A DNA stretch of 64,000 nt from an uncultured Phycisphaerales bacterium. Lineage in GTDB: Bacteria > Planctomycetota > Phycisphaerae > Tepidisphaerales > Tepidisphaeraceae. Below the pieces are notes generated by a model. The model was not told the origin of the DNA and ran no database searches. It saw nothing but the letters and a program-made list of their open reading frames with translations. Made by a program: the position numbers and the translations under genes. Below, one piece after another: positions 7,087 through 62,791 of this stretch; within the stretch, counting starts at the first letter, position 1; the number at the start of each line of letters is the position of its first letter. The stretch spans positions 2,432,001-2,496,000 of the forward strand of contig CAVWVQ010000003.1 in the NCBI GenBank assembly GCA_963758525.1. The letters are read 5' to 3'.

Positions 7087-7171
7087 CCGGGGAACCGAGG
7101 GTGCGAGCACCGCTTGGCGTTGGGGAGACCATCGCGAACGCCGAGCGGTGCTTGCACCCTCGGTTCCCCGG
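7087..7171. repeat. REP-like inverted doublet, family A
   Basis: CCGGGGAACCGAGGGTGCGAGCACCGCTTGGCGTT ... AACGCCGAGCGGTGCTTGCACCCTCGGTTCCCCGG. Confidence 0.85.
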
Positions 7172-7981: not shown

Positions 7982-8093
7982 TCCTTTAGCCGCCTCGCTC
8001 GCGAGGCGTGGCCAGCGGCGCCGCTTTGCGAACGGCGCTTCACGGCATATCCGCGCCGTTGGACACGCCTCGCGAGCGAGGCGGCTGAAGGAG
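7982..8093. repeat. REP-like inverted doublet, family B
   Basis: TTAGCCGCCTCGCTCGCGAGGCGTGGCCA ... TGGACACGCCTCGCGAGCGAGGCGGCTGA between convergent genes; relatives at 25918 and 58525. Confidence 0.8.
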
Positions 8094-14322: not shown

Positions 14323-14501
14323 TTAGAGCTCGTTGCATTACCCCCCTCTCCCGGTACTCCGGGAGAGGGCTGGGGTTGAGGGTGATTTTGACGACCAATA
14401 GGTGCCCGACGTTCAAAATCACCCTCACCCCCGCCCTCTCCCGGATTACCGGATTACCGGGAGAGGGGGCAAGTCGCTCGAAGTTCTGAAACGGGCTCTA
14501 A
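14323..14501. mobile_element. MITE-like shell with a nested family-D palindromic doublet (14341-14470)
   Basis: Terminal inverted repeats TTAGAGCTCGTTGCA / TGAAACGGGCTCTAA (13/15). Core CCCCTCTCCCGGTACTCCGGGAGAGGG...CCCTCTCCCGG..CCGGGAGAGGGGG. Confidence 0.65.
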
Positions 14502-18648: not shown

Positions 18649-19077
18649 ATGCCGGTTCGAAGCGCGGACGCAGTGTGGGAAGGCGATCTCAAATCTGGCA
18701 AGGGAAAAGTGAAGGTGGAGAGCGGATCCTTCGAGGGGCAATACTCATTTTCGACCCGTTTTGAGAGCGGCAAGGGGACTAATCCCGAAGAGCTGATCGC
18801 GGCTGCCCACTCCGGCTGCTTCGCGATGGCGCTGTCGGCGGGGCTGGGCAAAGCCGGCTTCACTCCAACGAAGATTTCCACAACCGCGAAGGTCACGCTC
18901 GACAAGGTTGGCGAAGGATTCAAGATCACGCTGATCAAGCTGTATACCGAAGCGTCGGTGCCGAAGATTGACGAGAAGCAGTTTGCCGAGATCGCGACCG
19001 CCACCAAGAGCGGTTGCCCGGTTTCGCAGGCGCTGTCGGCGACGAAGATCGAATCGGAAGCGAAGCTGGTGAAGTAG
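18649..19077 (+). CDS. osmC: OsmC family peroxiredoxin
   Basis: GTNPEELIAAAHSGCFAMAL and CPVSQAL; AAGGAG RBS. Confidence 0.93.
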   Translation: MPVRSADAVWEGDLKSGKGKVKVESGSFEGQYSFSTRFESGKGTNPEELIAAAHSGCFAMALSAGLGKAGFTPTKISTTAKVTLDKVGEGFKITLIKLYTEASVPKIDEKQFAEIATATKSGCPVSQALSATKIESEAKLVK

Positions 19078-19147
19078 GCATTGAGGCACGAAGGCACGAA
19101 GGCGCGAAGGCACCGAGGCACGAAGGCACGAAGGCACGAAGGCACGA
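19077..19147 (+). repeat. Octamer tandem array (GAAGGCAC)n, about 9 units
   Basis: gaggcacgaaggcacgaaggcgcgaaggcaccgaggcacgaaggcacgaaggcacgaaggcacga. Confidence 0.92.
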
Positions 19148-19279
19148 CGGGAATGACGCTGGCGCGGCGGATTTTGTTCCGCTCCGTCTCCTCTTTACTT
19201 TCTACCGTCTGGTGCTCTCGCGCAGGGCAGAGGGCCGCGGCTTTTTGGTTGGGGTGCTTCAATCGATAGCCCTGATAGC

Positions 19280-23020: not shown

Positions 23021-23160
23021 GGTGTAACTTTTATTTGTGGCGATTGCAGATTTTGCGATCGTAGGGCGGGATTCATCCCGCCGTTTTCTCAGCCGGCCAA
23101 CAAATCGGCGGGATGAATCCCGCCCTACTCGGAGCCGATCGCCACTTTCGAGCGCCACAC
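23021..23160 (-). repeat. ~140-bp dispersed element containing a GTAG-footed REP doublet, family F (23061-23128)
   Basis: GTAGGGCGGGATTCATCCCGCC...GGCGGGATGAATCCCGCCCTAC; the whole unit including flanks matches 49767-49903 in the opposite orientation. Confidence 0.85.
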
Positions 23161-27761: not shown

Positions 27762-29780
27762 GTGTCGACTCGCGTATTTTGGAATGCGCGTATCTGGAAT
27801 GCCTTCATTCGGGCGGCTTGGGGCGATATAGTCACTGAAGTGACGCGAGGATCCAGAATTGCGGTTTTGTCGGCGTTTACCGCCGTCGCATTTTTGGCAT
27901 CTCTGGGACATCGCGATATCGCAACCAGCCACGAAGCCCGCGTGGCCCAGACTGCGCGCGAAATGGCCGTCACGGGTTGGCCCTTGTCGGCGCGGAAGGT
28001 GAACGCCCCGCCGGTCGCGCTGACCAGCATTCGTGGCATGGTCCGGCTCACGCCCGATCTTCTGGCGGAGCCGATCGCGGTCAATAGCTGGGCTGTCCCC
28101 CTTCTCAACGGCGAAATCCGCCTGCAAAAGCCGCCGCTTCCCTACTGGTGCGCGGCGATTCTCTTTCGGCTGTTTGGTTTCAGCGAAGCCGCCGCCCGTT
28201 TTACTCCAGCACTGATGGGCTCACTGGCGACGATCTTTGTATACGACCTGACTCGCATGCTGCTGGGCCGCTGGAAGGCGAGACTTGCCGCGCTCGTCTG
28301 GATCACCACTCTTTTCATCCCTGAAGAATTTCGCAAGGCGATGGCAGATCCGTATCTGGCGTTCTTCACGCTCGTCTGCATCTGGGCATGGATTAAGGCC
28401 GCCAAGATCGCGCGCGACGGGCGCAGTGCGCAAAACGATCCCCGGTCGGCGCCTCTGTGCGTCGTCATCTTCTACGTATCTCTCGCTTTGGGAATCCTTG
28501 CGAAAGGGCCGCCGCTTTTTTTGCACATCGGCATCGCTCTCGCTGCGTTTCACTATTGTTATCGCTGGCCGTTGCCGCGCGGGTTGGGCGGCCATCTCAT
28601 CGGACTGACGGCTCTGGCGCTCATCGCCCTCCCCTGGCCGATCTACGTCATCCGGCACATCCCCCATGCCGTCGATCTGTGGCGCTATGAATCGGTTGGC
28701 GAGCTTTCGGATAACGTCGAGAATGCCCGCCCGCTATGGTTCTACGCGCCCAACGTCGTCTTCATCGCCCTCCCCTGGGCAGCAGCATGGATCGCCGGCT
28801 TCATCGTGCCGCTGCGGCGCGCCAGGAATTCGAGGGTGAGCCGCTCTTCCCCCCTTCCCTGGTACTCCGCGGGAGGGTCGGGGTCGGGGCCGGGGCCGAG
28901 ATTGGAAACAGCGCAGACGTCCAAGACCCAGCAGGACCAGGAGAGTGAAGGACCCGCTTCAGTGCTCAGTCTCCAAGGATTTCCGCTACGTGCCTCTACC
29001 CGAGGCCGGCGGCTTTTCCCGATGATCTGGTTTGCCGCCACCGTCATCTTTTTTTCCTTAGTGCATCTCAAGAAGAATCCCTATCTCCTCCCCGCCGCTC
29101 CCGCGCAAACGCTGCTGATCGTTGAAGGGCTTGCCGCCGCGCTTGCGGTCGCCCGGCGTGCGCGCGGCTGGACCTGGGGCGGCGGAATTCTCGCCGCCCA
29201 GACCGCGATCGGAATCGCCGGATGCATCTTCGTTCTCATCGCCCTGCGCGTCGCTGCGCCACCGGCCTATCGCCATTTTGCAATGACGATCTGTGCCTTG
29301 GCCGTCTGTTGCTGGACGATCGTCGTTCTTCAATTACGAAACCCGATGGCGTGGGTCTGGTGGCAGGCAAGCGGGTATCTGCTTCTCATTCTGGGCGTGA
29401 TGCTGACGCTGGAGACAAGAATCGACAACGCCCGCTCCGCCAAGTCGCTTTGCGCCGAGTTGGCACTGCACGCCGAGGCCCCCGACACCGCCATCTTGCG
29501 AGCGCGATTGCCCGAAGAAGTCGCTGTCTATCTGCCGCTCAAGGAAGAGCCAGCCCTGGCACGGCACGTCCTGGTGGTCGTGGATGATCAGTTTGCGGCG
29601 CGCGAGCGTGTCAAAACGCATGTCCCACCGCCGATTCCGTCTCCCGAACATTTCGATAGCAGCTTTCCCGACGGCCGCGTTCTTTTTGTCGATCGCATCC
29701 CGATGAAGACTGCCCCCGGCGACGCGCGATGGAAGGTCTACGATCTGACCGTCGAGCGGTTGCGTTACGCAGCGAGATGA
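27762..29780 (+). CDS. ArnT/GT39-family membrane glycosyltransferase (start may be ~27840)
   Basis: HEARVAQTAREM, RLQKPPLPYW, LAKGP and multiple TM helices; repeat-derived insert at 28827-29007. Confidence 0.85.
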   Translation: MSTRVFWNARIWNAFIRAAWGDIVTEVTRGSRIAVLSAFTAVAFLASLGHRDIATSHEARVAQTAREMAVTGWPLSARKVNAPPVALTSIRGMVRLTPDLLAEPIAVNSWAVPLLNGEIRLQKPPLPYWCAAILFRLFGFSEAAARFTPALMGSLATIFVYDLTRMLLGRWKARLAALVWITTLFIPEEFRKAMADPYLAFFTLVCIWAWIKAAKIARDGRSAQNDPRSAPLCVVIFYVSLALGILAKGPPLFLHIGIALAAFHYCYRWPLPRGLGGHLIGLTALALIALPWPIYVIRHIPHAVDLWRYESVGELSDNVENARPLWFYAPNVVFIALPWAAAWIAGFIVPLRRARNSRVSRSSPLPWYSAGGSGSGPGPRLETAQTSKTQQDQESEGPASVLSLQGFPLRASTRGRRLFPMIWFAATVIFFSLVHLKKNPYLLPAAPAQTLLIVEGLAAALAVARRARGWTWGGGILAAQTAIGIAGCIFVLIALRVAAPPAYRHFAMTICALAVCCWTIVVLQLRNPMAWVWWQASGYLLLILGVMLTLETRIDNARSAKSLCAELALHAEAPDTAILRARLPEEVAVYLPLKEEPALARHVLVVVDDQFAARERVKTHVPPPIPSPEHFDSSFPDGRVLFVDRIPMKTAPGDARWKVYDLTVERLRYAAR

Positions 29781-29804: not shown

Positions 29805-29991
29805 TTAGGGCCCGCGCACGAATAACTTGCTCAAATAATTTCGAAGTTAGCGGAGGGCGATTCCCCTGTAGCACAGCCGTCTGGGCTGTGATTTCGGGCC
29901 ACAGCCGAGACGGCGCCAAGACGGCCGTGCTACGCAATTGCGTCACCTGTAGCTTCGAAATTGCTCAAGCTATTCGTGCGCGAGCACGTAG
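29805..29991. mobile_element. MITE-like element with nested GTAG-footed REP doublet, family G (29867-29933)
   Basis: Inverted ends GCGCACGAATAACTTGCTCAA / TTGCTCAAGCTATTCGTGCGC; empty homolog at 56790-56900. Confidence 0.75.
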
Positions 29992-30057: not shown

Positions 30058-31173
30058 TCAATACGTCCTGCCGATGTACCCCACGATCGCCCGCTTCAGC
30101 TCGAGGGCATCGAACGCTCCCGTTTGTCGATAGAGCACTTTCCCGCCGGGCGCCACCAGCAGCGTAAACGGCACGGGCCCCTGCCAACTTTTATCCAGCG
30201 CATTCACCAGCGCGTCCTTGTCGTCGCTGCTCCAGATCCGGTTCTCGAATGCCAGGTGATGCTCCTTCAAGAATTCCAGAACCTGATCCTTTTTGTCCGC
30301 ATCGTCCATGCTGATGGTAATGGTCTCCAGCTTGCGACTTCGATAAATCCGGTTGATCTCCAGCAGCTCCGGCATTTCCGCCACGCACGGCCCGCACCAC
30401 GTCGCCCAGACATTGATCAGCCGAAGGTTCTTCGAGTCGTTCGCCGCCAGCTTTTTCACCCCGTCCGCATCGACCCCTTCCAGCGTCACTGGCTCGGCGT
30501 CCCATTTCTCAATCGCCTTTTTCGCGTTGCCGGACTTTTCGATCCACTTCGTCGAGCAACCAAAGACATGCGTTCTCTCCACCGGCACCGGCTTCCCCGC
30601 CAGGATCGCCTCAATCGCGTTGATCGCGTCGGTGTGATGGACCGTCTTCACATCCGAGTCATCGATGCGGCCCTCGTATCGCAGCTTCCGATCTCCGTCA
30701 AAGATAAACACATGCGGCGTCGCGACGCATCCATACGCGTGCGCCGTTTTCTGCGTATCGCCGTCATACAGATAGGGAAAATTAAACTGTTGTTCCTTCG
30801 CTCGCAGCTTCATGTCGTCGAATGAATCGCTGACGTCGGAGTAGCGTAACTCATCGAGCAGCAGCGCGTCGGGATTGTTCGGATTGATCGCGACCACGGC
30901 CACGCCCTTGTCGCGGTAGTCGGTTGCAAGTTTTTTGATGCGTCCTTCGTATGCCTGGGCCGTGGGGCAGTGATTGCAGGTGAAGACAACGACGAGGATC
31001 TTCGCCGACGCGAAGTCGTGAAGCGTGTATTGCTTGCCGTCGACACCGGGCAGGTTGAAATCGGGGGCGGTTGCGCCGATGTCCAGCGTGTGGACCTCGG
31101 CGGCATGGGACAGGGGAGACCAGAGAAGCAACGCCACTACGGCAATCAGGATGGGGCGGTTCATACCATTCAA
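30058..31173 (-). CDS. Exported tandem redoxin (AhpC/TSA-like plus TlpA-like domains)
   Basis: Signal peptide; FTCNHCP and WATWCGPC motifs. Confidence 0.85.
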   Translation of the reverse strand: MNGMNRPILIAVVALLLWSPLSHAAEVHTLDIGATAPDFNLPGVDGKQYTLHDFASAKILVVVFTCNHCPTAQAYEGRIKKLATDYRDKGVAVVAINPNNPDALLLDELRYSDVSDSFDDMKLRAKEQQFNFPYLYDGDTQKTAHAYGCVATPHVFIFDGDRKLRYEGRIDDSDVKTVHHTDAINAIEAILAGKPVPVERTHVFGCSTKWIEKSGNAKKAIEKWDAEPVTLEGVDADGVKKLAANDSKNLRLINVWATWCGPCVAEMPELLEINRIYRSRKLETITISMDDADKKDQVLEFLKEHHLAFENRIWSSDDKDALVNALDKSWQGPVPFTLLVAPGGKVLYRQTGAFDALELKRAIVGYIGRTY

Positions 31174-32569: not shown

Positions 32570-32620
32570 AATTGTCTCAGTTCGTCTCTATTGTTGACGC
32601 CGCTGATCAAGGTTGCTGCC

Positions 32621-32732
32621 CCGTGGCATGGGCGTCTCGCCCATGTTAGCGGCACGGAGCTTCAAAAAAGCCCTTGCTATCCCAAGTTTTCGACTCCCGC
32701 GTCGCCAACACGGGCGGGACGCCCGTCCAACG
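32621..32732. repeat. REP-like doublet, family C
   Basis: CCGTGGCATGGGCGTCTCGCCCATGTT ... AACACGGGCGGGACGCCCGTCCAACG. Confidence 0.75.
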
Positions 32733-32785
32733 CGCAGAGACTCACTACTTCTTCAATCGTGGCAGATAATTCTCACCACTGGGCG

Positions 32786-40381: not shown

Positions 40382-43300
40382 TCATGATTTTTTCCTGTTG
40401 CCGTTGACGAGGCCTTCGAGTCCTTCATCGTCATTGTTCCGGTGCCGGCCCGAACCGATCGATTCGAGAATGGGCAGCGGATCGACGAAGTTCCAGGCCG
40501 GCATGGAGGAGAGCAGACTGCTCAGCAAAGAGCCGGCGCGGAAAATCCAGACGAAGTAGGCCAGCGACATTCCGATGGACATAAACGACGCGGTTCCCGC
40601 CCAGACTTTGACCTCCGAGTGCATGTTCTGCTTCATCGCGTCCAGGTCGACCCAGAGCTTGCTGTTGTTGGCCAGGAGCTTGCGCGTGCTGGCGAACTCG
40701 GCGCGCATCGATTCCCGATGGAGCAAATTCACCGCCGAGTCGTCCCGCGCCGGCGTGGGCGGAACGACGGGGGGCGCCGCTGCCGCTCGCTGCGCAGCGT
40801 TGGCCGCGGCTCTCGGAACCGGGCGGGCCGCCGGCGCGGCGGCGGGGGTCGCGCCCGGCGTCTTGCTCGCAGGCGGCGAAACGTCGGTGGAATCCGGGGC
40901 CGGAGCAGACTTGCCATCGTCTCCAGTAGCTGAAGTGGAATCCGAATCGTTCGTCGTGGTCTTTGCGACAATCGAATCGGACAGCTTCGAATTTTGATTG
41001 GGAGCAGACGCCGGCGCAACAGTTGGAACCACGGGAGGCGCAGGCGAGGGCGCGGGGGCAATCGGAACGGCCTGACGTTTCAGCTGGAACGCAACGGCGC
41101 CGGTCGTCCGCCCCACCGCATCCTGGGCCTCGAACTGGAACGTGTCGGGGAAAGGCACGCCGCCGGCTGGCGCGTAGCTGACGGCGCCGCTGTCGAGGTC
41201 ATCGCGCGTGAAGGAGCCGTTCACGCTCAGCGGAGTCCCATCGAGCAGCAATGTTCCATGCTGGGGCAGCGAGAGAATGACGTAAGAAACGCCCTCGGCC
41301 GCGCCCGTGGGCTCGGCGACGTAGAGGGAGTCTGTTGTGATCGGAGCGGGTCCCTGGTTGGGGAGATCCAAAGATGACCGGCGAACCAGCAGCGGCGCGG
41401 GGATGACGGTGACCGCCGCCTGCACCGGGCTGCCGCCAAGGCCCGAGTCCGATGGTGACACCGACGCCTGAATGGTAAACGCACCAGGCGCAACCGAGCC
41501 GGCAGTTGGTGTGAAGCGGAGACCCGCCAGGCCCTGCGCGAAGGTGATAAAATCGCCGTCGCCGATCGGCGTGACCCCATTCTGCTGCACGAGAGAGCCG
41601 CCGGCAATGTTGGTGATCTTGAAGTACCCTGCCAATGAACCATCCGCCACATCCGGCGTGATCACCAGGCCGGTGCTGGTGCGATGACCTTCCAGCACCT
41701 GCGTGTCCGTGACGCTCGGAGTATGCGCAATCGGCGTGACGTCCACCGCGATCGTCATCGTCGCGGACTGCGGCCCCGGAACGCCGGTGTTCCCCAGATC
41801 GTTGAGCGTGACGGCGAGCGTCGCCGGCCCCGAGTAATGCAGGGCGGGCGTGAAGATCAGGCCATCCAGCGCGGCGTCGAGAGAGCTCAGCGTCCCAGTC
41901 AATGTGATGGCAGATGCCGGGCTGTTCGACGACGAGGAGGTTGCCAGCGTGCCGTCGGTCGCCGACAGCGTGAGTTGTTCCGGATGGTTCTCCGAATCAA
42001 CGTCGGCAAGGGTGATGCCGTCGCCACCGGCCGGTGAGAGTCCGAGCGGCACATCCTCGACTGTGGACTGCGCCGGCGGGCCGGAGATCGCGGGGGCGTC
42101 GTTTACGGCAACGACATCGATTGGGCGGTCGACCGGGTCGCTCGAAATAAACACATCAACGACGCTGAACTCGGCGCTCCTCGCCGCGACGGAAGGGTCG
42201 TGGCTGGAGTTTGCATACGCCACCGACTGCAGCGCTGACTGGTAGGTGGTCGCCGACGCAGCTCCGCTGAGCGTCAGCACTCCGTTGGCCGCGTCCCACG
42301 AACCGGCGATTCCGTTCTGATCCGTGAACTGCAGCGTATCCTCAGACGGAACGAATCCGATGACACGTACCGTCGCACCCGTGAGCGGCGCCGCGTTCTG
42401 GTCCGTGATGGTCAGGCCCGGAGAGATCTCGGCAGCGCCCTGACCTTCTGTGTACGCCAGCGCGCCCGAATCAACTGCGAGCGTCTGCTTGCGGGCGACC
42501 GACACGGTCGCCGTCACCACGCTTCCGCCGAGCCCCGAATCGTCGGAAGTTGTCGACGCCTGCACTTGAAAGCTGCCGGTTGGCGCGCTGCCGGCAACTG
42601 GAGTGAATTTCAGCCCGGCTTCTCCCTCCGCGAAGGGGATGAAATCTCCGCCAGCCACTGCGCTTCCATCTGAGAGGGCGAGGCTTCCGCCGGTGATTCC
42701 GGTGATTTTGAAATAGCCGGCGAGCGACGCATCCAGTGCATTTGGAGTGATCGCCAGCCCGCTTGTTGTTTGCGCGGTTTCGATCGTTTGCGCCGGCGAC
42801 ACGGATGGCTGATGGGCGATGCGGTCCACGGTGATCGACACGCTGTCCGTGTCAGAGAGCGCGCCGCTGGGTCCCACGTTAGCCGGATCGGCGGTAACGA
42901 TCTGAAGCGAAGCGGCGCCCGCATAGTGCAATGCCGGCGTGAAGATCAGTCCATTGAGCGCGGCCCGCAGTTTGGCAAGCGTGCCGGTGAACGACACGGA
43001 GGAATCGCCGATTCCCGTGCCGCTGGTGAGCGTAACCCCGGAACCGGCGGCAAGTGTGACGGCGCCGTTCGAGGCGGACAGCGTGACCAGGTCGGTTCCG
43101 GAGCCGATCGATCCGTCGTTGACGGAGATTAAGCGTGTGGATGAGAAGATCAGTGGCGCGTCCTCGGCAATCGTCTGCGCGACGGGCACTTGATTCACCG
43201 GAGGGCCGGCCACGGTGATCGAAGCCGTTGCGAGCGAGCCGCCAAGTCCTGCGGGATTGTTCGCGGTGGACGCCTGAACGTGGAACGTGCCAGTTGCGAG

Positions 43301-46300
43301 GGAGCCGTTTGTCGGCATGAAGCGAAGTCCCGCGGAGCCCTGGGCGGCGGTGACAAAGTCGCCGTTGAGGATCGCGTTTCCGTTTTGATCGAAGAGCGTT
43401 CCGCCCGTAATGCCGGTGATTTGAAAGTAGCTTACCACCGGTCCGTCGATCGCATTGCGGGCAATCACCAGCCCGCTGGACGTCTCCTGGTTGATGACCG
43501 TCTTCGCATTCGTGATTGATGGCGTATGAGCGACCGCTGTGATCGCTAATGCAATTGTCGCATTGGCGCTATTGACCCCTTCGCTCACGGAAGCGGCGAG
43601 GCTGGCGCTGCCCACATAGTGCGTCGCCGGCACAAACTGCAGGCCGTTCATCGCGTTGTTCAGGCTTGTCAATGTTCCGGTGAACGTCAGGGAAGCCGCG
43701 CCGGACGCCGTGCCGCTGGTAAAGGAGATTCCGGAGACGCTTGCGAGCGTGAGTGTCCCATTTGTCGCCGTCAGAGTGACAGAGGCGTTACCGTTCGCGT
43801 TGCCAGGATCGCTCACGCTGATCGCGTCGGAGTTTCCGGCGGAGAAGACCAGCGGCGCATCTTCCGCGGTCGTTCCTGTGGCAGGCGCGGCGAGCGAGGG
43901 AACGGGTCGTATTGTTATCGTTGCAGCGACGATCGATCCGCCGAGCCCCGAAGCGCTGTTCGATGTCGAGGCTTGGACGCTGAACAAGCCTGCTGCCGTC
44001 GAGTTGGTTGCGGGATTGAAAAGCAATCCTGCTTCGCCGGCGGCGAAGGTGATGAATTGGCCGTCGCTGATCAGATTTCCATTGCTGTCGGAAAGTGAAC
44101 CGCCGGCGATCCCGGTGATCTGGAAATATCCCGGTATCGACGTATCGAGCGAATTGGGGGTGATGACCAGACCGCTGGTGCTTTGGACATTTTCATTCGT
44201 GCTGGCGGTGGTGACCGACGGCGTGTGAGCGGCCTGATCGACAGTGATTGCGACCGACCCGTTCACGGCGTTGGAGCCTTCGCTCACTGAGATTGCCAGG
44301 CTTGCCGACCCGGAATAGTGCGTGCCCGGCACAAACTGCAGGCCGCTCAGAGCAGCATTGAGATGGGCGAACGTACCGCTGAAAGCGTCACTGCTGCTGC
44401 CGCTGAAACTGCCGCTGCTGAAGGTCAGACCAGTTGCACTTGCCAATATCAGCGTGCCATTGCTGGCGGTCAGCGTTACGGAAGCGGTCCCGCCGCTGTT
44501 GCCGGGATCGCTGACCGAGATTGCGTTTCCGTGGGCGGCGGAAAATACCAGCGAGGTATCCTCGTTGGCGGTCGCGTTGGTGGGCGAAACGAGAAGGGGC
44601 ACCGGCTTTACGACGATGCTGTCAGCCACGACCGAACCCCCAAGGCCAGACGCACTGTTGGATGTCGACGCCTGAATATCGAACATGCCGGCGACGGTCG
44701 AGTTGGTTGTGGGATTGAAAACCAATCCTGCTTCGCCGCTGGCGAAGGTGATGAACTGGCCGTTGCTGATCGGATTTCCATTATTGTCCGACAGTGACCC
44801 GCCGGTGATGCCGGTGATCTGGAAGTACCCCGACAGTGAAGAATTCAGTGCATTGGGAGTGATGACAAGACCGCTCGTGGTCGGCGTGTTTTCGTTGGTG
44901 GCAGCGGGGCTTGCCGTTGGAGTGTAGGCAACCTGGGCGACGGCGGGCGTTGCGTATAGCTGGAAGAAGACTCCATTGTTGTCGCCGGCTCCCTGCCCAT
45001 CCCAGGCGACCACCGCATGCGCGTCATACCAGGCGATCGCTGCATCCTGCTGATTGCCCTGGGTTGTGGTATTGACGAGAAATTGGCCGCCGTTGGCAGA
45101 CCCGTCCGCCTTGAACGCCTGTCCGAAGACGCCATTGCCGTTCCCATCGAGATTATTTCCGGCAGTCCACGCAACCAGATAGCTGCCGTCAGCGCGCACG
45201 GCAATCGCCGGCTTGGTCTCCATGGCGGCGCCGGGGTCGCTCAACTGCACCGGCGAGGCGTCCAGGGCGGTGCCGGCCGCATTGTACCGGCGCGTATAGA
45301 TGCCCTGACCAGGGCCACTCTCGGACCAGGCGACCACAAAGTTTCCCGAATCGTCGATGCCCACCGCGGAAAGATCTTGGTTATTGCCTCCGCTGGCGCC
45401 GACCAGGATTTCTGCCGATGGCGAGCCGGAGGCGGGAAGCAGAGCCGCCTTGATCGTCTGTGCAGGGTTCTTGTCCGTCCAAGTCACCACGCTGCCGCCC
45501 TGCGGGTCGGTTGCGATCGCGGGATTGGTCTGCGGTCCAGTGACGGTCGCGTTCATCAGAACGGCGCCGCCGTTGGCCGCTCCGGCGGCGGTGAAACGCT
45601 GCGCGTAAATTCCGTCGTTGTCGCCGGCCCGGTTTCCCTCATAAACAATGGTAAATGAACCGTCGGCTGCCATGGCGACAGCGGAGGGTGTATTGCCCTG
45701 TCTCGCGGAGCTGACCAGCGTATCACCGGTCAGCGCGGTTCCCGCCGCGTTAAACACCTTGGCGTAGACGCTATTCCCGTTACCGTTCCACGAGACAACG
45801 AACTGGCCCGATGTGTTCATCGCCACCGACGGCGCGGGGGAGCCGCCGGCCTGCAACGTGTTTACCTGAAATTGGCTTCCGACGGCAGTGCCGGACGCGT
45901 TGTACAGTTGGGCGTTCACTTCGCCGCCCGCGGCGCCATCCTCCCAGACCACGATAAAGTTGCCGGAATCATCCATCGCCACCGCAGGCAACTGCTGGTT
46001 GCCCCCGGTGGAGGCGGTGTTGACCAGTGTCTCGCCGCCCAAAGGCGTGCTGACCGGCCCGGCCGCCCCGATCGTGAAAGGCCTGCTGCCCGACAGCGGT
46101 CCGGCAGTTGCCGTCACGGTGCCGGTGCCGGTCGTAGAGGGGGCCAGGTAGAGACCCGAATTGCTCAGCGTGCCCGGCCCAGTCAGTGAATAATTAATCC
46201 CCGGCTGAGGCGACACCGCATCGCCGAACTGGTCTTGCACCGTTCCAGTGAACTGCTGCAGATCATTTGCCGGCACCGTGGCATTGGCTGGCGCGACAAC

Positions 46301-48443: not shown

Positions 48444-48505
48444 TGTCGCACAGCCGTCCCGGCTGTGATTTCAAACGAGCTCACCCCTGAGAAGGCTGTG
48501 CTGCA
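48444..48505. repeat. Degenerate REP doublet, family G
   Basis: TGTCGCACAGCCGTCCCGGCTGTGATTTC...GGCTGTGCTGCA resembles 29867-29933. Confidence 0.65.
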
Positions 48506-49766: not shown

Positions 49767-49903
49767 TTGGCGCTTGATAGCGGGACGATTAGCTCCGAGT
49801 AGGGCGGGATTTATCCCGCCGATTTGCTGATTGCCGAGAAAACGGCGGGATGAATCCCGCCCTACAAACTCTGGATCTGCGTTCTCCACCTCAAAAGTTA
49901 CAC
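49767..49903 (+). repeat. ~140-bp dispersed element with family-F REP doublet (49799-49865)
   Basis: Reverse-complement match to 23021-23160, sharing the end AAAAGTTACACC. Confidence 0.85.
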
Positions 49904-56391: not shown

Positions 56392-56799
56392 ATGACCTAC
56401 GACCAACTGATCTCGCTGTACTTCGAGCGCTCCAACGCGCTGCAATGGTATTGGACACTCTATGTCGTCATCATCGGCGGGCTGCTCGCGTTCTCGTCGA
56501 TTCGTAAAGAGCCGGACCGCGTCACGGCAGCCCTGGTGACAGTGCTGTTCTGCTTTTTCGCCTACAAGAATCTCGGCGCCATCCACGACGTCACGGACCA
56601 ACGGCTGGCGATTCTGCAGATGATCAGGCAATCATCTCCGGTGGAAGCGGGGCGCGCTCACGACGCGTTGCTCGAAGCAACGCTGCATCCGCCGGTGTAT
56701 GAAGCCGTGCGAAATTTCCATGTCGCCAGCGATCTGTTGACGATTCTTGCCGTCTGGGCGATGGAACGCCGCCGCCGGCGCGCGGCCGCTGCGCGATGA
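56392..56799 (+). CDS. Hypothetical membrane protein
   Basis: 135-aa ORF with about three hydrophobic segments. Confidence 0.7.
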   Translation: MTYDQLISLYFERSNALQWYWTLYVVIIGGLLAFSSIRKEPDRVTAALVTVLFCFFAYKNLGAIHDVTDQRLAILQMIRQSSPVEAGRAHDALLEATLHPPVYEAVRNFHVASDLLTILAVWAMERRRRRAAAAR

Positions 56800-56900
56800 T
56801 GACCTGCTCAAATAAACTCGAAGCCGGCCGAAGGTGATTCCCCGTAATTGCGTCACTTCCAAATTCGACATTGATCAAGTTATTCGTGCGCGAGCACTCA
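56790..56900. mobile_element. Empty copy of the MITE-like element at 29805-29991
   Basis: TGCTCAAATAA..TCGAAG...GATTCCCCGTAATTGCGTCAC...TTGATCAAGTTATTCGTGCGCGAGCAC aligns end to end. Confidence 0.75.
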
Positions 56901-56945: not shown

Positions 56946-58484
56946 TCAAATTGCGCGGCTCGATGCCGTCCGCTGTACAGCGCCGTTAATCGGGGGAAAA
57001 AGAATTCCAAAGCCGCGAATCGCCGCCTCGGCTTCCGGACGAATCACCATCGTGGGACGAGCGTTGCGCAGCATGGCAATCGCTTGATCCGGCGACTCTG
57101 CTTCTCCACTGGCAATCAGCCATGCGCCAGCCACGGCGGCTGTGCGCGAGTAGCCGGCTTTGCAATGAACATACACAATGCCGCGCGCGGCACGCTCGCT
57201 GATCCACGCACAAGCGTCGTGGAGCTGCGCCGGCAAAGGCGCGGTCAAATCCAGGAGGGGGAGATTACGGTAATCCAAGCCGCGAAACGCGCGCGGCTCG
57301 GAGAATTCAGCGGTGAGATCGAGAACCGCAGTAACGCCGGCGGCGATCGCCGCCCGGGCCTCGGCGTCGGAGAGCTTGCGGCCGATCCAGACGTGATCGG
57401 TTACGCGGTTCCATGGCTGGCACTGTCGCGCGTAGTGTGCCAGCGAGAGGCGCTGGCCAAGCAGGATCGGCGCCAGCAGCAGTTGCGTTGTGAAGGGAAG
57501 TCGGCCGTGGTTCTTGCGATAGATTCCCGGCCCCAGCCCGCAATACGCGACGCCGATCAGCAGACACGATGTCGCCGGCCAAAAGAGAAGCCACGTCCAC
57601 GGCCGGCTGATCAGCGCGCCGGTCGCCAGCACCAGCGCACCAGCCAGGTAGTATGTTCCCGCGCGGATGTTCACGCTCGCCGGCTGTCGTAGCGGCTCAT
57701 CCGCGATGAAATGAAAGCACGCGATGGCCAGCCCAAAGCCAGTGATGACGTCGATCACGTGATGTTGGTAAGTCAGCACCGCTGAGAGCAGGATCAACGC
57801 GAACCAAAGCCAGATTGCGGCATGGGCGCTTCTCTGGAGGAGACACTTCCCCGTGGCACGGGCATCTTGCCGGTGCTGGAATCGTGGTACGGAAGCAAGC
57901 TCTCGATATCCGCGATTGCTGTCGTTCCATGTCGCTAACACGGGCGGGACACCCGTGCCACGGGGAGAATCCGTGCCCCCATCATGAGGCTCGCTGAAAA
58001 CCTCTCGTGCGTTGCCCGGAGAGGGTGTGACGCGAGCACGGAATTGTTTTGCATAATGCACGGCCAGGATCATTCCCAACGCGATATGAAGCGACGGGGC
58101 CTGATTGAACGGTTGGTCGGCGGCGCGGAAATTGTCGAAGATCATCCCGAGCCAGCCCTGCACGGGCGGGCGGTCAAACGCGAAGCGCAAAGGGAATAGC
58201 AGAAAGCAACAGCCGGCAATCAGGATGGCGGCGGCGATGCGCCGCGCCAGCGTACGGCGCTCCAGATCGTCGCGGCAGAAAAAAGGGGACGCGATAAAGA
58301 AGAGGTCGATCGACAGGTAGGGAAGGATCATCAGCGGCACGAAGGGAATGTGCCGTTCCCACGAGAACGGAAAGCTGGGCACGTGCGGCCGAAGAGAGGC
58401 GAGCCAATTGGTCGTGCAATACACAACGAGAAACAGCGCACAGAGCAGGGCGGAGGTTTTGGCGGCTTTCCAGCTCATCTGCAT
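56946..58484 (-). CDS. PAP2 plus dual-specificity phosphatase fusion (YnbD-like)
   Basis: WERHIPFVP, FNQAPSLH, YQHHVID, YVHCKAGYSRT; in-frame repeat insert. Confidence 0.88.
   Translation of the reverse strand: MQMSWKAAKTSALLCALFLVVYCTTNWLASLRPHVPSFPFSWERHIPFVPLMILPYLSIDLFFIASPFFCRDDLERRTLARRIAAAILIAGCCFLLFPLRFAFDRPPVQGWLGMIFDNFRAADQPFNQAPSLHIALGMILAVHYAKQFRARVTPSPGNAREVFSEPHDGGTDSPRGTGVPPVLATWNDSNRGYRELASVPRFQHRQDARATGKCLLQRSAHAAIWLWFALILLSAVLTYQHHVIDVITGFGLAIACFHFIADEPLRQPASVNIRAGTYYLAGALVLATGALISRPWTWLLFWPATSCLLIGVAYCGLGPGIYRKNHGRLPFTTQLLLAPILLGQRLSLAHYARQCQPWNRVTDHVWIGRKLSDAEARAAIAAGVTAVLDLTAEFSEPRAFRGLDYRNLPLLDLTAPLPAQLHDACAWISERAARGIVYVHCKAGYSRTAAVAGAWLIASGEAESPDQAIAMLRNARPTMVIRPEAEAAIRGFGILFPPINGAVQRTASSRAI
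57851..57963. repeat. REP-like doublet, family C, inside the YnbD-like CDS
   Basis: CCGTGGCACGGGCATCTTGCCGGTG ... CACGGGCGGGACACCCGTGCCACGG. Confidence 0.85.
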
Positions 58485-58524
58485 TCGCAACTGATAGGGC
58501 CTCAGTAACAGACGGCTTGGAAAC

Positions 58525-58656
58525 CTGTTTAGCCGCGCCGCGAGCGAAGCGCGTCCAACAACGTTCTCTGGACGAATAGCGCAAGCCGGCATACCACGTT
58601 CGTTGGACGCGCTTCGCTGCGCGGCGCGGCCAAACAGCTTCTGTAACGAGCTGTAA
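58525..58656. repeat. REP-like doublet related to family B, with an adjacent TIR-like end
   Basis: CTGTTTAGCCGCGCCGCGAGCGAAGCGCGTCCAAC ... GTTGGACGCGCTTCGCTGCGCGGCGCGGCCAAACAG, then TTCTGTAACGAGCTGTAA. Confidence 0.75.
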
Positions 58657-58657
58657 A

Positions 58658-60409
58658 CTAAGCGGGTAACGGAGTACCCGCGTCTTCCGATGCCTTTCGC
58701 CGCCGCGCGACACACACCGTGAATATGCCCGCCTCGTCGATCTCCTGTGACATCTTTTCAAACCCGGCCTCATGCACCAGCGCATCCATCTCCGCCTGCG
58801 TGCGGCGTCGCATGATCCATGGCTTGCCTTCGCGATTCGTGAGCACGCGCGCGATGAATTCCACCTGCGGATGCCAGGGCTGACAGGTATAGATCAGATA
58901 GCCGCCCTCCTCAATCGCGGCGGCAATTCCGCCGAGCGATCGGCGGATCGGGCCGTTCTCGGGGAACAGCTCATACAGGCCGGAAACGATCGCAATTGTC
59001 GGACGGGGAGCGACGGCCGCGAGAGAAGCGCCGTCAAACGCGTCCCCCAGTACGGTCTCGATTGCTTTCACGCCCAATTGATTTGCCAGCGACGAAACCG
59101 CATCGAGATTTTCCTGCCGGTAATCGCGCAACATTGCGCTGGCGGGAATTTCCGCCATTGCCTTCATCGCTTCCACGACATACCTGCCACCGCCGCAGGC
59201 GATGTCGAGAATGCGAACCGGTCGTTTCGCTTGGGCGAGTTGCTGCATGCTCATCCGGAGCACTTTTTGCAGATGTTCCCCGCGAACGCGAATCCCGCGC
59301 CAGCCGATGCTGTTCAAATAGAAGTAGTCGATCAGCCAGCCGACGAGCATGCGCCCGGCGGGCTGATTCCGGTAGACATAGTCGAGCGTGAGCCCTGAAT
59401 CGAATCCACTTTTCCATCCGAGGCTGACGCCGCGACTGAGCCGGCCGATGCTCTTCAGGAACAGGGCGATGAGCGACCAGTGCACCTTTCCCGGGCCGCG
59501 CAGCAGATCGTATTCGGTTCGCGTGTATCCGCCCTTGTCAGCGTGAACCAGAGCGTGCGGGCAGGCAGTGCGATCGAAACATTCAAGGACAAAAGCCCGG
59601 ACTCGCTGCACAACCTCCTGTCGATCGGTCTCCTGAAAAATCGAGTGATACGCGCCGGGCAGCACGTCGAATTGCTTCACCGATGAACTGAGCCTTGCAT
59701 AAAACTCCTGCTGGGCGGAAAGCTCGACAACCCAGTCTTTTCCCGCCGCGATGATCAGCGTTGGAGTGGAAATTGCGCCGGCATCCTTTACCAGTCGCGC
59801 GGAAGTGTCGTGCAGGTCGAGCAGCATGTTCACGGCAATTTGCCGGAAGACCATCGGGTCCTTCTCGTATTGCTCGACATGGGCCGCGTCGTGCGTAAGC
59901 ATCCGCGCTTTCACGTAGCTTTTCACGACACCCGGTCCGAATACTTTCTCTTTGATACGGAGGAAGGGGATCGCCAGCGGAACATAGAGCCGAACGCGAA
60001 ACGCCGGGGCCGCCAGCACCATGCCGCGGATGGGCGGGGCGTAGTCATGGACCCACCCCGCGGCGATGACCGCTCCGATGCTGTGGGCGATCACGATCGT
60101 CTGCCGCAGATCGATGCCGTGCGCATCACAGAGGTGCCGGGCGAATGTCTCGGCGTCCTTGATCACCGCCGCCACGCCGGGCCCGTGGCCGCGTTCTCCG
60201 TCGGACTGGCCATGTCCCCTTTGATCCCATGCGAAGATGGCGCAGTCGTCCAGTTTCAGGTCGCCGGCGGTTTCCTCCCAGAATCCCGAGTGCTCGTGCC
60301 CGCGGTGAAACAGCAACACCGCTTTGGCGCCCGGCATTGGCGGCATCCACGCCCGATAGAAAAGCCGCGTACCGTCCCACGATGTCATGGTGTGCGTCGT
60401 CAATCGCAT
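58658..60409 (-). CDS. Bifunctional alpha/beta hydrolase plus SAM methyltransferase (YnbC-like)
   Basis: FHRGHEHS, AHSIG, GFDSGLTLDYVY, LDIACGGG, QPWHPQVE, MRRRTQAEMD. Confidence 0.9.
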   Translation of the reverse strand: MRLTTHTMTSWDGTRLFYRAWMPPMPGAKAVLLFHRGHEHSGFWEETAGDLKLDDCAIFAWDQRGHGQSDGERGHGPGVAAVIKDAETFARHLCDAHGIDLRQTIVIAHSIGAVIAAGWVHDYAPPIRGMVLAAPAFRVRLYVPLAIPFLRIKEKVFGPGVVKSYVKARMLTHDAAHVEQYEKDPMVFRQIAVNMLLDLHDTSARLVKDAGAISTPTLIIAAGKDWVVELSAQQEFYARLSSSVKQFDVLPGAYHSIFQETDRQEVVQRVRAFVLECFDRTACPHALVHADKGGYTRTEYDLLRGPGKVHWSLIALFLKSIGRLSRGVSLGWKSGFDSGLTLDYVYRNQPAGRMLVGWLIDYFYLNSIGWRGIRVRGEHLQKVLRMSMQQLAQAKRPVRILDIACGGGRYVVEAMKAMAEIPASAMLRDYRQENLDAVSSLANQLGVKAIETVLGDAFDGASLAAVAPRPTIAIVSGLYELFPENGPIRRSLGGIAAAIEEGGYLIYTCQPWHPQVEFIARVLTNREGKPWIMRRRTQAEMDALVHEAGFEKMSQEIDEAGIFTVCVARRRKASEDAGTPLPA

Positions 60410-62660: not shown

Positions 62661-62781
62661 CGTGGCACGGCGTCCCGCCCGTGCTGGCGACGGGGGAGGA
62701 GAAGGGGCATCGGATCGCGAGGGGTTTTCCCAATTTCCGCGTCACCTGCATGGGCGAGACGGGCGAGACGTCCATGCCACG
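62661..62781. repeat. REP-like doublet, family C
   Basis: CGTGGCACGGCGTCCCGCCCGTGC ... GCATGGGCGAGAC...CCATGCCACG. Confidence 0.75.
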
Positions 62782-62791
62782 CGAAGCGAAT

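Follow-up and report, generated by a model that had tools for sequence, protein, structure and literature searches.

Among the closest described counterparts of the element analysed here are REP dimers from Anabaena variabilis and Halothiobacillus neapolitanus. In the available portion of PMC3733652, these dimers (GTAG-15 and CGTC-1, respectively) are regularly enclosed in a palindromic shell, and the authors report that no shells without REPs were found and leave the shells unassigned to any element. Cleavage by TnpA-REP at CT has been shown for two systems, and one of the enzymes also cuts at CA (accessible text of PMC8266576). The accessible part of 10.1101/2021.07.10.451892 places REPINs and MITEs in different classes. 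In the literature covered, which largely leaves out subscription journals, we found no account of REP doublets carried by DDE MITEs and none of ISAzo13 MITEs, and the REP literature examined contained no direct demonstration of REPIN insertion.

The window, which is the whole stretch of 64,000 nucleotides that was analysed from the source assembly (G000), contains a REP doublet that resembles these systems in part. It shares with REPINs, as these are described in the accessible parts of PMC3116915, PMC3733652 and PMC8266576, inverted GTAG-footed hairpins, a short spacer, an extragenic position and a high copy number, and the REP is present in 19 of the 141 genomes of the order. It differs from the REPIN/RAYT systems in that the doublet nearly always lies within a DDE-type element with 3-bp target repeats, and in that we found no RAYT gene with this exact REP on its flanks. 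With the MITEs of DDE insertion sequences (ISAzo13, PF07592) it has in common the terminal inverted repeats of an autonomous element, 3-bp TNA/TWA flanks and non-coding content; unlike them, its interior is the REP doublet of an unrelated HUH system, and the matching autonomous element occurs only in other genomes (L090, G058 and G021). Like the GTAG-15 and CGTC-1 shells, as far as the available text of PMC3733652 describes them, it holds REP dimers within one palindromic shell, whereas here the end sequence and the target repeat tie the shell to an IS family, and the shell also occurs once without REPs. Judged from its sequence, the locus is a real composite of two known parts and not direct proof of REPIN mobility.

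Structure of the filled element and its shell

The filled element (29808-29987) is situated between two convergent genes and consists of a 59-nt left arm, a single T, a 66-nt core that runs from a GTAG at 29868 to a CTAC ending at 29933, and a 54-nt right arm; TTA precedes it and GTA follows it (Table 1). An initial annotation of the locus had described a 67-nt difference between this site and a second site in the window. That difference (29867-29933, the T plus GTAG...CTAC) is real and is bounded by GATTCCCC and GCAATTGCG. The core was also recognized correctly as a GTAG-type REP doublet, with a GTAG foot followed by a palindrome, two inverted REPs and a short spacer. In folding, the insert was more stable than its shuffles on either strand (z = -5.0 and -4.9; 0/200 shuffles equal). 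Its length is atypical, the insert measuring 67 bp against a modal doublet length of 55 nt (34 of 63 complete doublets), and the core contains an extra 11-nt internal duplication; the copy at C3:4496578 has one too. The CT that was noted before GTAG is present at this copy, but in the family it precedes only 14 of 38 left REPs (CC precedes 15) and 1 of 38 right REPs. Because CT is not conserved, and because TnpA-REP enzymes cut at CT and in one case also at CA, its occurrence at this one copy is weak evidence.

Table 1. Features of the filled element, its neighbours, the core-less copy and a decayed doublet (window coordinates)
Feature	Position	Strand	Remarks
PMT-type glycosyltransferase gene	27762-29780	+	Neighbour of filled element
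Left flank TTA, likely 3-bp target duplication	29805-29807	+	TNA follows 19/37 MITE termini vs 3.6% background
Left arm of MITE shell (terminal inverted repeat: outer ~29 nt)	29808-29866	+	Profile E 4e-19; 21 of the first 22 nt are identical to the left end of L090 (ISAzo13 element)
Left REP, GTAG foot and 7-bp hairpin	29868-29890	+	
Spacer, 9 nt	29891-29899	+	One direction in all arm-bearing copies
Right REP, inverted, with 11-nt internal duplication; CTAC end on + strand	29900-29933	-	
Right arm of MITE shell, including right terminal inverted repeat	29934-29987	+	Profile E 5e-16
Right flank GTA	29988-29990	+	2/3 match to left flank
Redoxin gene	30058-31173	-	Neighbour of filled element
Decayed doublet of the same REP family, arms undetectable	48445-48504	+	Profile E 1.6e-6
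Left arm of core-less copy, outer terminal repeat decayed or lost	56799-56843	+	Profile E 1.2e-6, model positions 15-59
Right arm of core-less copy, then TCA	56844-56897	+	Profile E 1e-13; 91% to filled consensus

The description of the shell as a MITE is borne out by terminal inverted repeats that match an autonomous PF07592 element. This element, L090, came from a metagenome scan; it is 1315 bp long, encodes a 413-aa PF07592 protein (E 5e-140) and is flanked by TTA on both sides. The remaining 5 of 6 metagenome matches were short or unresolved elements in which that gene is not beside the repeat. Similar ends precede ISAzo13 coding sequence in L100 (G058, same family) and in three contig-end copies in G021, and the shell ends also resemble those of a PF07592 transposase remnant in the source genome (C1:308729). 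Target features of ISAzo13 were measured in this analysis: 9 of the 11 elements examined had identical TWA flanks. Seven MITE copies have both termini intact (at least 15/19), of which two show perfect 3-bp duplications and four match at 2/3 positions. Shell and doublet likely spread as one unit by means of a DDE transposase, because the terminal repeats match an ISAzo13 element and the flanks are biased towards TNA. The 90.9% complete assembly yielded no intact ISAzo13 whose ends match; its one C-terminal and two N-terminal ISAzo13 remnants have different terminal repeats. Since the assembly contains no intact cognate element and even the two most similar shells share only 91% identity, the shell family is likely inactive now.

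The right arm may represent the 3' end of a transposase gene, with the CTAC of the REP overlapping Asn-Tyr codons, although the case is borderline: the 12 nt after CTAC fall in about the top 5% of 17,561 genomic CTAC sites scored against 16 IS ends, and the distance from CTAC to the end is 54 nt in the shell versus 48-59 in the IS. A 28-nt pattern gave 0 matches in the metagenome, and a pattern search of genome contigs gave 4, all to MITE-like elements of Polyangia that have similar ends but lack a transposase. Short elements with similar ends and TWA flanks are also found in unrelated genomes (L091, L092, L095 and L071-L074), and L095 encloses REP-like hairpins.

Other repeats are present in the window. 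Palindromic families occur at 23061-23128 and 49799-49865; at 32616-32738, 57846-57968 and 62669-62787; at 7982-8092; at 7087-7171; and at 14351-14452. Among them are another family of GTAG doublets and sister REPs with a GTGG foot, and one palindromic repeat lies in frame within the ORF at 56946-58715. Tandem arrays of 8-bp units were seen at 1087-1252 and 19076-19178, and repeats with a period of ~700 bp at 41463-44922 are probably repeated domains of a large protein.

Shells and doublets across the source assembly

Separate profiles for the left arm, the right arm and the core were built from BLAST-found copies and searched against the whole assembly (6.47 Mb, 90.9% complete). The core was found at 73 loci, the left arm at 25 and the right arm at 37, and the reversed-genome control gave 0 matches. 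Both arms accompany the core at 19 loci, the right arm alone at 16, the left arm alone at 4 and neither at 34, so that at least one arm is present at 39/73. Two-armed shells contain the doublet in 19 of 20 instances, the sole exception being the empty copy at 56799. Arms without a core were found at two further places: C3:3651811, a right-arm piece that retains the end of the right REP, and C4:114342-114384, a 43-nt mini-element made up of the two terminal repeats only, with TTA on both sides. Scanning the assembly for the terminal repeat (36 matches) revealed no additional empty shell. A lone terminal repeat lies at C3:890040-890059.

Complete doublets with both feet number 63, a count that leaves out 10 partial cores; 38 have arms and 25 are arm-less. 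Shell junction sequence, defined by test words taken from the filled copies, is retained in 18 of the 25 arm-less doublets versus 4.7% by chance. The doublet is thus not seen here as a moving unit of its own with varied flanks, 56 of the 63 being located in shell arms or shell junction remnants. Arm-bearing doublets are all at one site with the spacer in one orientation: the spacer has A first, beside the left REP, in 31/38 and T last, as in a flipped insert, in 1/38, and this single spacer also has A first. The initial annotation had presented the filled and empty sites as direct evidence of REPIN mobility, an interpretation that we do not retain; the doublet occurs in 19/20 two-armed shells, an outcome that the annotation itself had named as counting against it, and does so at one site and in one orientation, which argues for one old capture followed by joint spread rather than for a fresh insertion.

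Mean pairwise identity is 88% for the core and 65% for the shell, the four copies nearest the consensus are all filled, and shell and core distances are weakly correlated (Mantel test, rho 0.30, p = 0.06). Slippage-type variants exist in the family, namely the 11-nt duplications, an arm deletion at C2:423103 and the TIR-only mini-element at C4:114342. A relative that had been placed at 48444 does belong to the family, but is decayed and has no detectable arms (Table 1). The element was not found in two genomes of the same genus (94% and 81% complete), and weak core matches were obtained in 2 of 40 relatives.

Origin of the core-less copy at 56799

The arms of the filled and core-less sites were compared separately. 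Left arms are identical at 35/45 nt (29822-29866 versus 56799-56843) and right arms at 45/54 nt, and in the core-less copy the arms are joined directly at 56836-56852 as GATTCCCC GTAATTGCG. The two sites had been said to align end to end; the arms do match, but the outer left terminal repeat at 56799 is decayed or missing, as it reaches 10/19 nt at best and has no matching flank. The right end of the core-less copy matches the first 22 nt of L090 at 21/22. Contrary to the earlier view that there is no clear target duplication at the insert, the commonest right junction in filled copies is GTA (8/38), which copies the first three bases of the REP.

We favor, with a probability of roughly two in three, spread of shell and doublet together, as one unit, through an ISAzo13-family DDE enzyme acting in trans, followed by loss of the doublet at 56799. 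The nesting, the copy counts, the match to ISAzo13 ends and the TNA flanks are the observed part of this explanation. A miniature transposon of ~170-180 bp with ISAzo13-type terminal inverted repeats would carry the GTAG REP doublet at one fixed site as the result of one ancient capture, either by RAYT-mediated joining or by recombination. Shell and doublet would then have been amplified jointly by the ISAzo13-family transposase in trans, the copy at 56799 would later have lost its doublet when replication slipped across the hairpin from one (C)GTA repeat to the other, and the composite would be immobile at present. Polymerases have been documented to slip at hairpins that short direct repeats flank (accessible part of PMC4134008), and in silico removal of the hairpin from the copy at C3:732962, which has the CGTA repeat, produces CCCC GTAATTGCG, the observed junction. 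The same junction would be expected from an insertion with a 3-4-nt duplication and, against a loss, only 2 of the 38 arm-bearing copies today have the 4-nt CGTA repeat on both sides of the hairpin base. The higher conservation of the core relative to the shell (88% versus 65%) would, moreover, call for selection, conversion or a RAYT-linked mechanism that maintains the core.

The state of preservation of the core-less copy bears on whether it is instead a surviving pre-insertion shell, the doublet having inserted once into an empty MITE whose filled form then out-replicated the empty one. The copy is 87% identical to the filled consensus and ranks 5/20, being nearer to it than 15/19 filled copies; only 3 of 35 right arms are nearer the consensus than its own. 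Its 13 differences in 99 sites have P = 0.003 at a true divergence of 25% and 0.05 at 20%. This young appearance argues against a pre-capture relic, which is expected to be as worn as the oldest copies. An empty ancestor is required if the doublet was inserted, and the clean junction fits such an ancestor, but only 1/20 shells is empty. The unrooted arm tree (bootstrap 16-90) is too poorly resolved to place the empty copy inside the filled clade, which leaves room for a pre-insertion shell, and at most 4 of its 13 non-consensus sites are common to any filled copy (permutation p = 0.32). Joining at CT would predict that CCCCT plus AC be kept, and these bases are absent from the empty copy. Repeated insertion into shells did happen in genus g6, in which a shell with several cargoes is found (see below), and for the copy at 56799 we consider a pre-insertion origin unlikely.

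The empty site could also be an assembly or library artefact, in which a polymerase skipped the hairpin. In sequencing runs, one of which contained the organism at a small share, no contig crosses the junction at 56843/56844, so that these runs speak neither for nor against it. The hairpin is strong and contamination of the assembly is 6% by marker genes, but the 63 other doublets were assembled intact and an error in the consensus needs skipping in most reads, so we give this explanation very little credence.

The REP family, its RAYT genes and a second shell

In comparison with the 19 of 141 genomes that have the REP, the terminal word of the shell is present in 2/141, and for this reason the REP is, by its distribution, older and wider than its composite with the shell. 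Many copies of the REP in other genomes are shell-free. Among 23 PF01797 (Y1) matches in the source assembly, none is a RAYT with this REP on both sides. A Y1 gene 110 bp from the doublet at C3:3467402 was considered as the cognate RAYT and rejected, as it belongs to a multi-copy element that has its own ends and truncates the right arm of the shell. Multi-copy Y1 elements that encode almost identical proteins and have inverted ends of their own are located at C3:305758, 303867, 223035, 3467565 and 4614154, at C1:316102 and 312138, and elsewhere; at C3:2875729, an ISAzo13 remnant is interrupted by such an element.

RAYTs with sister REPs on their flanks occur in G044, G101 and G000. The sister REP in G044 differs at 3/23 positions (by eye), and the RAYT that it flanks is 45% identical to a RAYT-type protein with an HUH motif encoded in the source genome (C3:1311988-1312596, minus strand). 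The presence of this protein makes it conceivable that a RAYT excised the doublet at 56799, that is, that the loss was a REPIN excision by an HUH enzyme, and REP doublet excisions have been seen in population reads of P. fluorescens (accessible part of PMC3116915). Those excisions, as described there, are asymmetric and leave ~6 bp of the right REP, whereas no base of the right foot remains at 56799, unless GTA is the start of the left REP. In addition, the REP that flanks the RAYT of this genome is a different one, with GTAC as its foot, and CT at the junctions is not conserved. We regard excision by a RAYT as quite improbable, and slippage as the preferred mode of loss.

In four genomes, a DinG-type helicase gene contains, in frame and at an identical position, a RAYT-type Y1 domain together with the REPs that flank it. 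The loci are L193 (G000, C3:1311988-1312596), L137 (G044), L144 (G101) and L133 (G091). Pfam Y1_Tnp and Helicase_C_2 were both matched in the three relatives (G044, G101 and G091), and in G000 the locus is an ORF. A literature search for RAYT with DinG returned nothing related.

A second shell carries the same REP in a sister genus (g6). In G100, which is of the same family, 16 of 28 REP loci fetched, among 37 exact matches listed, are inside this different shell, and second-shell loci in G100, G101 and G007 comprise L051, L066 and L151-L192. Flanks were compared for 29 two-ended copies from these three genomes with spans of 90-340 nt only, and match best at 8 bp (mean 0.66 versus 0.16-0.37 at other lengths; 5/29 perfect). 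The cargo of the 29 copies is this REP type in 20, a GGAG-type doublet in 6 and something else in 3. An unrelated shell with 8-bp target repeats and the same REP indicates that capture recurs; capture of REP doublets by MITEs has, on this comparison, happened several times in this bacterial family. The earlier suggestion that MITEs take up REP doublets therefore gains from an other-genus shell with at least three kinds of cargo, but no empty shell accompanies it: no short empty pair of second-shell ends was seen by eye among the end positions listed. No parent IS was seen in the first 260 nt of 18 stretches beside unpaired ends. The two unrelated shells might be taken to mean that MITEs are recurrent, RAYT-driven landing sites, joined between CT and AC and then amplified by DDE transposases, with 56799 as a surviving pre-insertion shell; we find this doubtful. 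If it were true, amplification of the composite by DDE transposases would provide a RAYT-independent route for the expansion of a REP family.

The locus at 29805 gives no proof of REPIN insertion. Counts of REP doublets, or pairs of filled and empty sites, should not be read as RAYT activity. Carriage by DDE-type MITEs offers an explanation for REP dimers in palindromic shells such as those described in the available portion of PMC3733652, and a REP family can owe the majority of its copies in a genome to a DDE-type MITE that carries them.
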